64,000 bases of DNA from Enterobacteria phage VT2phi_272. Where the stretch lies: sequence record NC_028656.1. The stretch is one strand, 5' to 3'. Position 1 is the stretch's first letter. Each line of letters begins with the position of its first letter. Shown here one piece after another: positions 6,001-12,000 of the stretch. A program made the position numbers.

Positions 6001-9000
6001 GGTACATTTCCCGGCTCCATCGAATTGTCGGGACAAATAAACGTGTTACAACCATATTTAACGAGCTCAATTCCCACTGTGTCGATAGTGGCGAATGGTT
6101 CAGTGGTCAATGCAGTCAACGCAATTTCATAAGCACGGCGCTCAATATTATCTCGCACGTCCAGGCTGCCGATTCGCTCTTTGATTTCTTTAATCATTTC
6201 TTTGTCGGTGAACGTTGTCATGTGTTAGTCCTTATCCACTTCAACGCCATCTTTCAGCGTGATGCCGTGCCAATCATCAGCCCAACTGGTTAACCCAGGC
6301 GCATCAATGCTAGGCATATAGACGCTTGCAGTGTGGTAGCCCTTATCGTTATCAATGCTGGCAACGTGCTCGCCGTTGTATGCGCTCAGCGTGTCTAGGA
6401 CACTATAAAACTTTCCTCCGGCTGCCCTGAAATCCTTTACAGCCTTCACAAGACGATTCCACGCTTTTTCCTGTTCTGGCGTCAGGTCGATTAATTCCTG
6501 CAAAGTTGCCATTTCAGTTTTCCTTATATGGGTTAATTTTATTGTGCAGTGTGTTGAACGACGCCCATACCACGTCGTTATACAACTCAATAACTAGCTC
6601 AATTATTTTCCCGATTGCCCAGACAAAAATTAGCGGGGATATCGGTGTCATCAACACGATAAACAGAATGAGAAACAAAAATTCTGTCGCTCTACTTTTT
6701 CGCGGATATTCTTTTCTGAATAATGTAGGCACATCACTCTCCTTTGTTGCTCCTCAAAATTTTATGCCCTGGCGCAAAAGCACGCGTTTTGTCTTTGTTT
6801 ATTCGCCAGCCATCCTTGCGCGCCTCTTTTGCACAGCCAGCCCATGACGTACCGATATACTCACCGAAATCTGGCGTTTGATATTTACCATTTGTACACT
6901 GGCGACAATCACAGTAGAGATGCATGGTGTAACTTGCGGCAATAGCCATATCCCCCTCCTTTACCCTGAAGCATGGCGTCGCTCCGCTCTATACCATCCA
7001 GCGCGATTCGCAGTGCCTGAATTGTGGTAGTGCTATCGTTTGGGGCTATTCCATATCGCTCGAATACAGCTAAATGGTTGCGCATAATCTCAGGCGTAAG
7101 CTCTTTGTAAGCATAAGCAAGAGGCTCTGATGCATTATCCGGCACAACCGACGCAGGCGCGGCAGCATAAACAGGAATAACGTCCGCTTGCTCTTTATTG
7201 CTTTCATCCGTTAAAGCCCAGAATAATTTCCCGGCCGGATGTTTGAAAATATAAGCAACTGGTTCTGCACTATCAGCTTCGCGCCGCTTCTGTAGCTCTG
7301 CTGCCATCGCTCTCACGACTTCAACTGGTGCCCTTGCAGCAAACTCCATGTTGGTGATCAGCTCATTAAGAAATTGCTCGCTGGGATACTGTTTCTTATC
7401 GGTTATAGTGGTCATATCACTCTCCTTTGATGCGAATGCCAGCAAGCCAGTTTCTTATGCCGATATATTCAGCGTTCCTGAAACCGCTTTTTACATATAT
7501 AAATGGCAATCGAAGATTGTGACCATTGACTGCTAGGTAATCTTTACAACCCTGTTCGGTGAAACAGCAGGTAACGAATTCATCAATATCTTTCACAGCA
7601 ACGCGCCGCCATTTTTCTGGTGGCTCCCGAAAGTTTTCATGAAGTAGTTCGAGACGACGACTTTGGAGTTTATTGGCTTCATTGCCATCTTCATCAACCC
7701 AGACAATCCGGTCATAGTCATAATCAGCATCAACAACGATTTCGCGCTTTTGATACACACAAAACATAGGATCTGACGTTATTCGATTATCCTGTGTTCG
7801 AATATTTTCACCGATGATGCCAAACGAATCTGGTGCAGATTTTGTCTGCATCTCTTCGATACGTTCAGCCATCGCAGCACACTCTTCAAAGTTGCTTAAT
7901 GCTTTTCGCTCCCATTCGGCGCATTGTTTTTCCAGTTCTGCTATGTGCTTACTTCCATCCGAGATAACGCCCTCGTAATACTCACGCTGCTCGTTGAGTT
8001 TTGATTTTGCTGCTTCAAGCTCAACGCGCAGCTTCCCTACCGTTAGCGCAATATCCTCGTTCTCCTGGTCGCGGCGTTTGATGTATTGCTGGTTTCTTTC
8101 CCGTTCATCCAGCAGTGCCAGCGCAACATTTGGATTAAAGGCAGCAATAAATTCAGCGTTTGCGTAAGCCTGAGCATCTGTTTCAACCAGGCAGTTAACA
8201 TGACATTCTGCAATCACGCCACCGGGTTCTCCTTTCCATTTTTGGCAAACAAAAACTCCTGTTAAATTGCCGTGTTGGTTAACAGATGTATGCCCTACGA
8301 TGTAGCTTCCTTTAGTTGCTTTCTCTGCCTTTTCACGCAGTTCCTGATAGTCAATCTTGCTCACTGGTTGCCTCCTTTGTGGAGCTGCGCTGCGATGCAC
8401 GAAAAAAAAGATTCCCGCGTATGACAGTTAAGAGCTGGTGCGAAAGCCGCGTTAGGAACGGCAGCATCACAGCCGTCATCGATATAGAGCGCAATTTTTT
8501 TCTCCAGGCGCGCTTTGGCTTCCTGCAACTGCATACCCCGGCACGTACGCGGGATATACTCAGCAATTTGAGCGATAGATTTTTCGTTCTGTTTAAACAT
8601 GCTTCACCTCGACAGGCTTGATTGTGTCGATCAGCAGTCTGCGGCGCGTATTTTCTGCAAAGTGGCGGCGTCCGGTTTCTTTGTGGTAAAACTCGTTTTT
8701 GCCGACGACCCACATCCGCTCTGTCTGGTGAAGTTTTTTTACCTGCGGGCCGTCTTTGGTGATCACAATGCCGGTATGGGTTTTTACGATTGTCATGCCA
8801 CTACCTCTTCGAATTTCAACTCCAATTGGTCACCCCAGATTTCACATGATTCGGAACACGAACCAGTATCAAACCGCTTGGCCAGCACCATCGCTTGATA
8901 CAAATTGCTGTAGTCGCTGTCGGCATACATCCTGGCAATCCCGTCAAGCGTCAGGTGACCACGGTACATAACGTCTTTACCTGTTCTGCGATGACCATCC

Positions 9001-12000
9001 CTGACGTGTTTGCCTGTAACCAGTTCATTAAAAACCCGCATCAGACCAGGTTCGTCTTTACATGCAAGCCCCAGCTTTTGCGTTGACTTTTTGATGCAGA
9101 AAACACAGTTCCCGAGGTGCTCCGGGATTTGCAAATCAAAAGGTTGTTTTCGCCACCACCGGATAACATCCGACTTATCAAAATCTGACAGTTCGGCAAG
9201 ATACCGGACGCCCGGTTTCGGTTTCAGCCTACGGGGTTCGTCTGCACGAATACCCAGCCACGTGATGTAGTTCCCTTGTCCGAAATGGTCATCGCAGTAT
9301 TTTATGAAGGGGGTGAGTTTTAATCTGTCAGTGCAGAACGCGCCGCCGATGTATGGCGTGCCATATTTTTTTACCATGTCCATAAACGGTTTAAGCACCG
9401 GCATTCGCGTCTGAATATCCTTTGGTTCCCATTCCGTATAACCATTTGGCTGCCCAAGCTCTGGATTTATATCGACCTGCAACACGGTTAGCGGAATATC
9501 CCAGAACTTCACAACCTCCCGAATAAACCGGTACGTCAGCGGGTGTTCACATCCCGTATCCATGAGTATGTAATGAACGTTTTCACCAGCTTTTCTGCGT
9601 TGCTCCATAAGGTGGACGAGGTACGCCGATGTCCGACCGCCTGAAAAACTCACAACATGATGAGTGCTCATTTCTTCGTCTCGTTACGGGGAGGGGGTTA
9701 AATAGGTGGTAAGCTGGAATTGCCGGATGTTTACCCGTGTCCGGGGTACGACCTCACGTTGCAGCGTACGAGAATAGACTATTGCTCAGTATCGTTTGAT
9801 GTCGGCTGAGGATATTCGCCTTGCTCTTGTAACAGAGTTAGAAGAATGGAAAACCCCTCACGATGTGATGATTGATGAGTGTCGATCCCGGAATGATTGA
9901 TGTTGTTAAACTCCAACATCGTGCTCCTGGCGATAGCCTCAACGGTATTCCAGAATACTAATACATCTGTTTTCTGCTCTGTTTTATCAGCAACAGGAAG
10001 TTTGATATTTTGTTGACATTTATTAATGCAACCATTTTGAATATGTTCCTCGTGCTTTTCATTGTCATAAGCATACAGCCCGACAAAAACATCTCGCACG
10101 TTACGGGATATATTTTCCAGATTCGCCTTTGGTTCCTTTGTTAAATCAAGCACCGATAAATGGGCTTTAAGCGTATCCGCAGCTATTTTCTGAATATCCT
10201 CTGGTAAATCTTTAAATTGCATAGTATACCCTCCAAGAACTGTGTATTTTCTCGTGAAATATGAGCGATATGTCGTGACGTCCCTGTCACAGATTTCATC
10301 ACACTGAGAACGTGCCGATGAAGGTTAAGATATCTTCTTCTTCGAAACGCTCTTTCAGCAGGTCACGGAACTCTTTGGCAATTTCTTCTTCCGCAGCTTC
10401 AACACGCACGATACGTAGCACCAGAACAGGCTGTTCGCTTGTCAGAATGCTTAATCGCAGCGTGAATTCCCTGTTGCCCAGGCCCTCGTATGGGATGCAT
10501 TCAAAGCGGAAAGTGGCAGGCATGATTTCTTTGCTTTTAGCCTCCACGGACTCCATGACTGAGCGGCTACCGCTGAAGTTTTGCTCTTCATATTCAGCAC
10601 TGCGTTTTGCATCGATGGTAAGACGACGGACAGCAGAGATAGCCTGTTTGATATCCAGCACATTACCGTCGCTGTCATAGGCTGTGAGGAAGTCGGCCCA
10701 GTCTTCCAGCCATTCAGCGAGAGACTTCTGGAGTTGTTTTTTGCCGTCAACGTCACGCAATGCGCGATATGGTGATGTGGCTTTCAGTTCCAGCAGTGCC
10801 TTGTTGTCAGCGTGTCCAGGTTGCTCCAGAGTGCCGATATTGAACACAGTGACTGCTTTCATCGTTTCCGCGTTAATGAAGCAGCGGGAGTGCTCATCGG
10901 CATACCCTTTGCTGTATTCAACAAAGTCATCAATACTGGTTGTGGTCATGACTCCACGGAAACGAAAACGTTCTGTCATGAATCGTTCCAGACTTTCGAT
11001 ATTTACATTGTCCGGCAATAACGCAACAGGGCATTCCGTAAGCGGCAAATTTTCACCAGAAAAAGCAGTAGTGGTGAGTTTTACAATTTCTTTAATGGCA
11101 TTGCTATCTAACTGAGACATGTATATTTACCTTTAATTTATGGATTTGGGGATAATGCGCGAGCGTTTTAAGGCGGGGATTATTCAGCGTAAAACAGCGT
11201 CATGTTGACCCTGTTTATCGAAAAGCTGTCCCTGGTCTTTCTGGAACAAAGTAAGCTCACCACCTTTATTTACAAACATCGGGGTGTTAGTTGTGTCTTC
11301 TTCTGATTTACTACCACGCATTGTCGGGCGTGTGAATTTTAGTTTATGGGAAACTGATACGCGATTTTCATCAAGTGAAGATAATTCGAATTCAACACAT
11401 ACCTTTCCTTTTTTGTTTGTGCTGTTTACGCCAAAGGCAACTTCACTTAATACCGCGCCAAGTTTGTTAACAAATACCCCGCCGTCGAGGTCGTTAATGA
11501 AAATATTAACATCTGTCTGATGCTGACTCATATTTATATCTCCGTGTAGAGAGTGTATTGAGGCTTCGGTTGTTTACTGCATTTAAAGCCTGGTTTTGTT
11601 TGTGAATTAAAAACTATCGCTGCCGTACTGCCAGTAACCTGGGGCGTCCGTGTGATTCGGGTTTACGTTTTTGCTGCGATTGTCTTTGTCTTTGAGAGTG
11701 GAAACCATATTTGCTACAGTTTCTGGTTTCTTTCCTTCAGCTTTTTCTTTCAGTGTCTGCCCTGTTTCTGCAATGAATGGAATGCGGATTTCCATCTGGT
11801 AACCGTCTGCGCCAGTCTTTCTGTTTGTGGTTAATACTTTCTGGAGGACGAGTCCGATTTTCTTTCCGTGAAACTCAGGTGCAACATATTTACTGACGGA
11901 AACCATATGCTGCGTTAACTGCCCAATTCCTGTGCATCCCATCATGGCGTGAATAATGCTCGCCCCAAATTTATTTTCAGTGCCGTCATTCTTCTGAACA

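Follow-up and report, generated by a model that had tools for sequence, protein, structure and literature searches.

What does a gene with the fold of a phosphoadenosine phosphosulfate (PAPS) reductase do for a phage that carries it among its early genes? The question arises in Enterobacteria phage VT2phi_272 (NC_028656.1), of which a stretch of 64,000 nucleotides, referred to here as the window, was analyzed. An earlier reading of this DNA (the original prediction) had placed an open reading frame (ORF) of the PAPS-reductase family at positions 8793-9671. On the basis of its alignments, this gene is the Shiga toxin (Stx)-phage ortholog of lambda ninC, an already catalogued and common lambdoid gene. 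The best explanation of its sequence features is that NinC is a PP-loop ATP pyrophosphatase belonging to the DndC/SspD/BrxP branch of the PAPS-reductase superfamily. It is tentatively proposed, with a probability of about 0.45, that NinC acts as a dispensable delayed-early nucleic-acid sulfurtransferase that helps the phage escape phosphorothioate (PT)-dependent restriction.

8793..9671, minus strand: ninC coding sequence, ATG start, 292 amino acids, 33.8 kDa, isoelectric point 8.05; ortholog of lambda NinC

The ORF is intact on the minus strand, and its coordinates agree exactly with those predicted. Membership in the PAPS-reductase family likewise stands. The Pfam model PAPS_reduct (PF01507) scores 34.4 bits (gathering cutoff of 22.5, E = 2.9e-8) in a match confined to residues 5-72, and the PHROG 424 family, "phosphoadenosine phosphosulfate reductase", matches residues 2-291 with E = 2e-92. 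In comparison with relatives at 93-95% amino acid identity, the ratio of nonsynonymous to synonymous substitution (dN/dS) is 0.087-0.097; therefore, the gene is functional and under strong purifying selection, and a chance ORF is excluded. The database holds 5,024 homologs at an E-value of 1e-3 or below, and an exhaustive scan yields 1,530 NinC-type clusters at 50% identity, 787 of which have E-values of 1e-10 or below.

Lambda NinC (Orf290; PHROG 424) is identical to the window protein at 229 of 288 positions (80%) without gaps. Genes that are 100% identical occur in PA2, phi346, and Stx2a_F765, where they are annotated as "NinC" or "PAPS reductase". The original prediction regarded such proteins as poorly understood, which is borne out. 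The gene is not unusual; it is the ortholog of the catalogued lambda ninC, a link that the prediction had missed. Synonymous sites are saturated between the lambda and window genes, so their split is old and does not reflect a recent transfer.

Conservation was assessed in an alignment of 49 diverse NinC-family sequences, reaching down to 26% identity. The residues invariant in all 49 are S10, G12, S15, T39, G40, E42, C113, K118, G140, R142, D144, R148, G187, N188, C189, K195, C272, and C276. C192 and E145 are each retained in 48 sequences and G11 in 46; C126 is not conserved. The motifs that harbor these residues, including those that correspond to adenosine 5′-phosphosulfate (APS) reductases, are as follows.

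9627..9650, minus strand: PP-loop SFSGGRTS (residues 8-15), the ATP-pyrophosphatase signature; coordinates verified
9546..9560, minus strand: DTGxE (residues 38-42), nucleotide-binding strand, with the "DTG" common to CysH
9309..9335, minus strand: CTDRLKLTP (residues 113-121), aligned with DndC "WCTDRLKIQP" and similar in pattern to APS-reductase CCXXRKXXPL
9228..9254, minus strand: GIRADEPRR (residues 140-148), the superfamily G-x-R-x-x-E-x-x-R phosphate-binding motif
9087..9113, minus strand: GNCVFCIKK (residues 187-195), a C-x-x-C pair with a basic patch after it
8841..8858, minus strand: CSESCE (residues 272-277), cysteine pair on the C-terminal tail

The PP-loop SFSGGRTS pairs with GFSGGKDS of DndC, and CysH has the degenerate SSSFGIQA at this place. 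The DTGxE strand is aligned to LTDTGYLFPETY of CysH, while GIRADEPRR pairs with GVRRTESVR of DndC and has GLRREQSGSR as its CysH equivalent.

In the RefSeq record of phage PA2 (NC_028449), the identical gene, gp24, is annotated as a 271-residue protein beginning at Met22, which leaves out window positions 9609-9671. This start is probably a misannotation, with the true start at the ATG at 9671, because initiation at Met22 would delete the invariant SFSGGRTS PP-loop. The ATG at 9671 is also backed by the alignment with lambda NinC and with the whole family.

The conserved cysteines fall into two sets: a core set, C113 and C189-x2-C192, and a C-terminal set, C272-x3-C276. C113, C189, and C192 are proposed to form a three-cysteine metal or Fe-S site, while C272/C276 are proposed to serve as a persulfide carrier or nucleophile on a tail that is probably flexible. 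In the AlphaFold2 (AF2) model, the predicted local distance difference test (pLDDT) score declines from 76 through 61 to 39 over residues 261-290, with the stretch of the cysteine pair at 61-76. In a homolog on the Acinetobacter baumannii plasmid NZ_CP027243, precisely these three core cysteines are retained, whereas the CxxxC pair of the C-terminus is absent.

The Fe-S cluster of APS reductases is bound via the motifs CCXXRKXXPL and SXGCXXCT (PMC3125206), and DndC has been described as a PP-loop enzyme with a three-cysteine 4Fe-4S center and a cysteine dyad (PMC10853773). NinC resembles the APS-reductase motifs in pattern. The first corresponds to F-C-T-D-R-L-K-L-T-P-F, in which one Cys is present and K-x-x-P is kept, and the second to L-G-N-C-V-F-C-I, in which CxxC is kept with an extra Asn and with Ile replacing Thr. 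GNCVFCIKK resembles both RFGCWTCT of DndC and SXGCXXCT of APS reductases by pattern, with no significant alignment. Unlike NinC and DndC, CysH has no cysteine at either core-Cys place.

Profile comparison with DndC, QueC, and CysH, the check that had accompanied the original prediction, favors DndC over the other two. Residues 4-148 of NinC are homologous to DndC; QueC stays below threshold, and the CysH cutoffs are missed. DndC, SspD, and BrxP are the sulfurtransferases of the DNA-phosphorothioation systems Dnd, Ssp, and BREX type 4, and it is among these enzymes that the NinC family has its nearest functional relatives. The hhalign comparison of the NinC family with Burkholderia DndC gives a probability of 96.4% (E = 1.2e-9, 125 columns), aligning NinC 4-148 to DndC 33-171 and pairing FCTDRLKLTPF with WCTDRLKIQPT. 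C113 is the only NinC cysteine aligned to a DndC cysteine (C135); the other conserved cysteines fall beyond residue ~150-175, where the two families can no longer be aligned. The DndC equivalog TIGR03183 scores 15.5 bits against a cutoff of 290.4 bits, and the PADLOC DndC model matches five of the 49 family members. The PADLOC SspD model matches NinC with E = 2.4e-14 and all 49 members (best 2.8e-20), covering model positions 1-121 of 277. The BrxP model matches 52 residues of NinC with E = 6.5e-4 and finds 26 of the 49. At the dndC reference loci (Burkholderia and Aureimonas plasmids), the gene order is dndC, a small protein, dndD, and FtsK.

QueC and TilS were considered as affiliations and rejected: Pfam QueC gives E = 0.22, ATP_bind_3 gives E = 0.15, and the TilS models are all below threshold.

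The AF2 model of NinC has a pLDDT of 88.4 and a predicted template modeling (TM) score of 0.86. Foldseek against the PDB places CysH and APS reductase at the top, over ~175-195 columns with TM scores of 0.36-0.52, followed by NAD and GMP synthetases, by CysD, and by LarE and TtuA, which are [4Fe-4S] sulfurtransferases. What this model-based comparison indicates does not go beyond the generic PP-loop core. With DndC as the query, the PDB yielded no useful match.

The top fold matches bear on the possibility that NinC is a CysH-type PAPS/APS reductase, an auxiliary metabolic gene that raises sulfate assimilation during infection. CysH and APS reductase are its best matches in the PDB, Pfam PAPS_reduct is above threshold, and several papers treat phage PAPS reductases in this manner. 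However, the curated models score far under their cutoffs: 22.6 versus 154 for NF002537, 16.1 versus 165.1 for TIGR00434, 12.6 versus 254.2 for TIGR02057, and 12.3 versus 235.3 for the APS reductase model TIGR02055. The hhalign comparison with E. coli K-12 CysH covers 62 columns (NinC ~5-69) at a probability of 88.7%, the profile search of PDB sequences matches the first ~100 profile positions only, and the fold match is limited in both its extent and its TM score. E. coli CysH ends in ...KRECGLHEG, while NinC ends in ...GSCSESCEIWGDQLELKFEEVVA, without the catalytic ECGLH. In addition, the host has its own cysH beside cysIJ, and the neighbors of ninC are recombination and anti-restriction genes. 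The gene is not a clear ortholog of the housekeeping CysH. The original prediction had argued against sulfate assimilation, and the missed cutoffs, the ~62 aligned columns, the absent ECGLH, and a near-canonical PP-loop in place of the degenerate CysH loop sustain that view. A role as an assimilatory reductase is very improbable.

The next matches, TtuA and LarE, raise a different possibility, namely that the substrate of NinC is tRNA, some other RNA, or a free nucleotide, which it thiolates or modifies in another way to tune translation or host takeover, defense not being directly involved. Most characterized sulfurtransferases that combine a PP-loop with an Fe-S cluster (TtuA, TtcA, ThiI, and MnmA) act on tRNA, and the homolog in one Vibrio phage has a tRNA cluster in its vicinity. 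By sequence, however, the neighbors of NinC are DndC, SspD, and BrxP, with TilS and QueC below significance. The fusion partners of the family are DNA adenine methyltransferases of two families, its genomic company consists of recombination and replication genes, and the genetic phenotype of a homolog, described below, concerns a DNA-restriction system. An RNA or nucleotide substrate is quite unlikely.

NinC-family proteins are associated with DNA methyltransferases. Independent fusions join NinC modules to Dam (PF05869), located N-terminally in some proteins and C-terminally in others, and also to a D12-class adenine methyltransferase (PF02086). A further fusion architecture, found in the 492-residue protein P0136, joins the module to a C-terminal extension of ~200 residues that matches nothing in Pfam. 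Salmonella phage Oslo carries NinB, Dam, NinC, and NinD in this order, and its Dam gene and ninC overlap by 4 nucleotides; Dam genes adjoin ninC in several further loci.

Such recurrent fusion or translational coupling to Dam or D12, with Dam on either side, would also be expected if NinC performed another DNA chemistry, adenylating and derivatizing DNA together with a Dam-type methyltransferase, so that a hypermodified base took the place of a sulfur mark and provided broad anti-restriction. PP-loop enzymes are also capable of amidation and ligation, as in the NAD and GMP synthetases among the fold neighbors. However, most family members, including the window and lambda copies, are stand-alone proteins, and no Dam-type gene adjoins ninC in this phage. 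The five conserved cysteines point to sulfur or metal chemistry, and adjacent anti-restriction genes can fuse without sharing a common chemistry. A hypermodified base is improbable.

Genetic evidence is available for p0018 of Vibrio phage 44E38.1, a PAPS-Dam fusion (P0088) that is 56% identical to the window NinC over 95% of the query. When p0018 and p0019 replaced the methylase genes of the Dnd-sensitive Vibrio phage 66E30.1, full plating was obtained on the Dnd+ host, at about 1e11 plaque-forming units (PFU)/ml (10.1101/2021.05.05.442762). Because 66E30.1 already had a separate methylase, described as 96% identical to the p0018 Dam domain (10.1101/2021.05.05.442762), and GATC methylation is no obstacle to DndFGH (PMC10470545), the NinC module and/or p0019 is likely the active part of this anti-Dnd transfer. 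The window has no homolog of the Dam domain by tblastn. PAPS reductases are also reported in Aca-regulated anti-defense operons in a 2026 survey. Of the host takeover and defense evasion put forward in the original prediction, it is defense evasion that appears plausible, on the indirect evidence of DndC/SspD/BrxP homology, Dam fusions, carriage by plasmids, and the Vibrio genetics.

JSS1_004, a characterized anti-Dnd protein, was compared and rejected as a relative; it is a T7 gp0.7-type kinase unrelated to NinC.

For the proposed sulfurtransferase, it is hypothesized that the SGGRTS loop binds ATP and adenylates a nucleic-acid oxygen, the likeliest target being a backbone phosphate or a base carbonyl in replicating phage DNA. 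The putative metal or [4Fe-4S] site of C113, C189, and C192 would present sulfide, as in DndC, TtuA, and LarE. Sulfur from host IscS would be relayed through C272/C276 on the flexible tail, and AMP would be displaced. The sulfur mark, or possibly interference with the host PT machinery, would lead to escape from Dnd, Ssp, and bacteriophage exclusion (BREX) type 4 systems. On hosts without PT-dependent systems, ninC would be dispensable. Neither a Dnd nor an Ssp system is known in K-12. In lambda, knockdown of ninC gives an efficiency of plating (EOP) of 1.0-1.5 with Q supplied in trans on laboratory K-12 (PMC10695390).

Several observations weigh against an anti-PT sulfurtransferase. The NinC PP-loop has Thr/Ser where the canonical SGGxDS carries the Mg-binding Asp. 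When the C-terminal half (~150-292) is compared with that of DndC by hhalign of sub-alignments, the probability is 0.5%; homology of the CxxC pairs of the two proteins was therefore dropped, and their equivalence is one of pattern and not of alignment. No PDB entry covers the C-terminal 100-odd residues, whether by Foldseek or by profile search of PDB sequences. Lambda DNA, a standard electrophoresis marker, has no reported degradation of the Dnd type, which argues against dense autonomous PT marks. The literature reports no phenotype or biochemistry for the window gene or for lambda ninC, and for the co-transferred p0019 (DUF6475), tblastn finds no counterpart in the window. Lambda is restricted 3- to 60-fold by three Dnd systems, with EOPs of 0.3 to 0.016 (PMC10470545); therefore, NinC would be no complete anti-Dnd factor there, provided that the lambda strain used carries ninC. 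These EOPs of 0.016-0.3 are milder than the restriction of up to 1e5-fold against lytic phages (PMC10470545), but they were rejected as a natural test of NinC, which would require a ninC mutant and a defined strain genotype. Finally, every PT writer described so far depends on both a dedicated NTPase (DndD, SspC, or BrxC) and a DNA-targeting subunit (PMC12914056), and no dndD/dndE, sspB/sspC, or brxC/pglZ/brxL neighbors are present in the ninC loci examined.

Because NTPase and targeting partners never travel with NinC, it may act either autonomously or via host machinery or in another role. In the first case, NinC would be a self-sufficient single-polypeptide sulfurtransferase that requires nothing but host IscS and ATP to place a PT or other thio-mark on the DNA of phages and plasmids. 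A fused Dam/D12 methyltransferase would then supply the sequence targeting, and the thio-mark would serve as a portable "self-badge" against Dnd, Ssp, and BREX type 4. Such complete autonomy is unlikely.

In the second case, NinC could act as a surrogate DndC/SspD in the host Dnd/Ssp complex or as a blocker of the PT-sensing restriction component. As a surrogate, it would speed the PT marking of incoming phage DNA, which is similar in concept to the boosting of EcoKI modification by lambda Ral. The absence of the NTPase and DNA-targeting partners required by PT writers is in line with this arrangement, as are the homology of the N-terminal half to DndC/SspD, the dispensability of ninC on the laboratory K-12 host, and the fact that the host in which the Vibrio homolog showed its anti-Dnd phenotype has a dndBCDE of its own. 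However, NinC is ~27-30% identical to DndC over 125-145 residues and unrelated beyond, such that docking into the varied DndDE/SspBC would be unlikely, and the strict conservation of the PP-loop and of the Cys set favors an enzyme over a decoy. A two-hybrid map, which covered lambda proteins, found no partners for NinC. Hijacking or decoy action is rather unlikely, and the enzymatic sulfurtransferase remains the preferred reading.

The window is a Stx2a-converting lambdoid phage, as judged from its sequence. Over positions 8000-10500, it matches Escherichia phages PA2, vB_EcoP_phi346/349, and Stx2a_F765 at 100% identity, and an ORF for the Stx A-subunit (ribosome-inactivating protein family) lies at 25570-26529, just downstream of Q (24301-24783). 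The early accessory region assigned to ninC in the original prediction is recognizable as a leftward early operon, with recombination genes upstream of ninC and an Ea22-like gene downstream.

12880-13830: recT, upstream of ninC in the leftward early operon
12194-12883: YqaJ-type exonuclease, upstream of ninC
Upstream of ninC: ORF annotated as single-stranded DNA-binding protein, 195 amino acids
10299-11120, minus strand: DUF2303, 273 amino acids, upstream of ninC
8593..8796, minus strand: ORF of 67 amino acids, downstream; its ATG overlaps the ninC stop (ATGA)
8361..8600, minus strand: ORF of 79 amino acids, overlapping the end of the 67-residue ORF
20664-22184: DEAD/ResIII helicase, right operon
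22174-23145: Toprim/zinc-ribbon primase, right operon
23145-23594: DUF1367, 56% identical to Vibrio phage 44E38.1 p0017
23596-24165: NinG, right operon
24301-24783: Q, right operon

The ORFs of 67 and 79 residues form an overlapping gene chain between ninC and the Ea22-like gene (8361-8796, minus strand) and are probably translationally coupled after ninC. Neither has a Pfam match. They adjoin ninC only in many members of the clade at 91% identity or above and are absent from lambda-type and more distant loci; the 67-residue ORF is clade-specific and no universal partner of ninC. DUF2303 is the usual upstream neighbor in the early-left clade, detected in about three-quarters of its loci. Among early-left loci whose ninC stays at ~93% identity, DUF2303 is often just 52-56% identical, which suggests mosaic recombination at the DUF2303/ninC junction.

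The right-hand nin region of this phage is reduced to DUF1367, NinG, and Q, without ninB, ninC, or ninD. The replication and nin region of the right operon as a whole (20664-24783) is unlike that of lambda.

Adenine methyltransferase genes are present elsewhere in the window. A complete type II restriction-modification pair occupies 16235-18654 on the minus strand, flanked by the early-left genes and by the cI-like repressor (18749-19462). Its two members, a BsuBI/PstI-family endonuclease (317 amino acids) and an Eco57I-type N6-adenine methylase (489 amino acids), have a 4-nucleotide overlap. An MT-A70-family DNA adenine methyltransferase gene (321-2260, minus strand) is interrupted by an IS3-family insertion, with gene fragments at 321-518 and 1865-2260 and transposase ORFs at ~600-1762. 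The phage's own orphan MT-A70 methylase thus looks inactivated. This disrupted gene is the only nearby adenine methyltransferase, ~6.5 kb from ninC.

The distribution of ninC was surveyed in 89 fetched loci. Copies of at least 91% identity lie mostly in the early-left operon behind DUF2303, with NinB/NinD in none of these loci, while copies of ~80% identity show the lambda arrangement, with ninB on one side and ninD/ninE on the other. Neither DUF2303-type nor nin-type neighbors accompany the more distant copies. Because two clades occupy different operons and the nin region of the window lacks ninC, the gene behaves like a mobile single-gene cassette able to change between the two delayed-early operons; in the Stx phage, it is taken to have relocated from the rightward nin region to the leftward early operon. 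Its position is not essential to the family. No universal partner gene was found over the 89 loci among p0019, NinB/D/E, the 67- and 79-residue ORFs, DUF2303, and Ea22.

Beyond these clades, NinC-type genes occupy varied settings. They stand between the large terminase and portal genes in Vibrio phage K69 (1451-2302 of the fetched locus), among small unknown genes in Vibrio 99E28-3 and in Salmonella phage Chi (gp42, "ninC-like"), and directly after a small "putative methyltransferase" with no Pfam match in a Riemerella phage. Some Salmonella phage records list fragments of such a gene under the names "portal protein" or "putative terminase large subunit", probably through misannotation. Many Vibrio-type members have 330-360 residues (e.g., P0124, P0130, P0138-P0140, and the gene at 3992-5032 of one fetched locus) and give two match stretches that break near residue 150, which implies that ~50-60 residues are inserted where the PP-loop half meets the CxxC half.

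Among 5,426 complete E. coli genomes, 552 (~10%) carry a ninC copy with a nucleotide identity of at least 80%. Matches also occur in 313 plasmid records, of which 150 are predicted to be conjugative and ~140 are from Acinetobacter; many of the Acinetobacter plasmids with a NinC-like gene are conjugative and ~70 kb in size. The homolog on plasmid NZ_CP027243 (7001-7774 of the fetched locus) has 257 residues and is 33% identical to NinC in the N-terminal half. It lies in a co-oriented block with H-NS, thermonuclease, DUF2786, and N-6 DNA methylase genes, possibly a leading-region anti-defense island.

As the product of a genome scan, the ninC gene of the window is ordinary and already annotated. 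The family is of wider interest, since ninC is among the last lambda genes without a function, and its biochemical role is open to testing in lambda. Its carriers include many Stx phages, Vibrio and Salmonella phages by the hundreds, and conjugative plasmids of Acinetobacter. In virome studies, such genes are regularly counted as sulfur-assimilation "auxiliary metabolic genes", a label that is wrong for the NinC family. If sulfur transfer proves true, NinC would be a minimal, partner-free counter-defense enzyme against PT immunity, for which lambda would be ideal for studies of mechanism.

Compared with known systems, the window protein is closest to lambda NinC. The two have 290 (lambda) and 292 residues and share identical SFSGGRTS, DTGCE, FCTDRLKL, GIRADEP, GNCxFCIKKS, and GSCSESCE motifs. 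Both genes are delayed-early and N-dependent, with an ATGA overlap with a small downstream ORF. However, lambda ninC belongs to the rightward nin region, where ninB and ninD are its neighbors, whereas the window copy lies in the leftward operon behind DUF2303.

CysH and APS reductase share with NinC the fold of the first ~175-195 residues (TM scores of 0.36-0.52), the DTG, and G-x-R-x-x-E/Q. In contrast, NinC lacks the ECG(L/I)H tail, has one Cys at the CC position, and is not in a cys operon, and its PP-loop is near-canonical where that of CysH is degenerate (SSSFG). TtuA and LarE (5mkp, 5b4f, and 8cnz) are among the top structural neighbors of NinC. They combine a PP-loop with a three-cysteine cluster that activates sulfide, a logic that NinC may follow if it binds an Fe-S cluster. 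However, they have no significant sequence similarity to NinC, and their substrates are tRNA and a nicotinic-acid cofactor.

With DndC, NinC shares the PP-loop half, Cys-Thr-Asp-Arg-Leu-Lys, and G-x-R-x-x-E-x-x-R, and the two resemble each other in the pattern of a later G-C-x-x-C. The "ECP...PGCG" cysteines of DndC are missing from NinC, which has the C-terminal CxxxC pair instead. NinC is also shorter, with 292 residues as compared to 375 and 379 for two DndC proteins and 447-481 positions for the DndC family models. DndC loci have dndD and FtsK-like neighbors, whereas ninC loci are without dndD, dndE, or FtsK-like genes. SspD is the best-scoring defense family, and its 277-position model is close to NinC in length. 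BrxP carries a DUF4007 fusion that is absent from NinC, which is also without SspB, SspC, and BrxC partners; the partner genes and the DUF4007 fusion of the SspD and BrxP systems have been described (PMC12914056, PMC12839542).

The Vibrio phage protein p0018 combines a NinC module with all conserved motifs in its N-terminal ~280 residues with a C-terminal Dam domain that is absent from the window NinC. Its gene lies among recombination genes (exo/syn, ninG/rap), a setting comparable to that of ninC in this phage.

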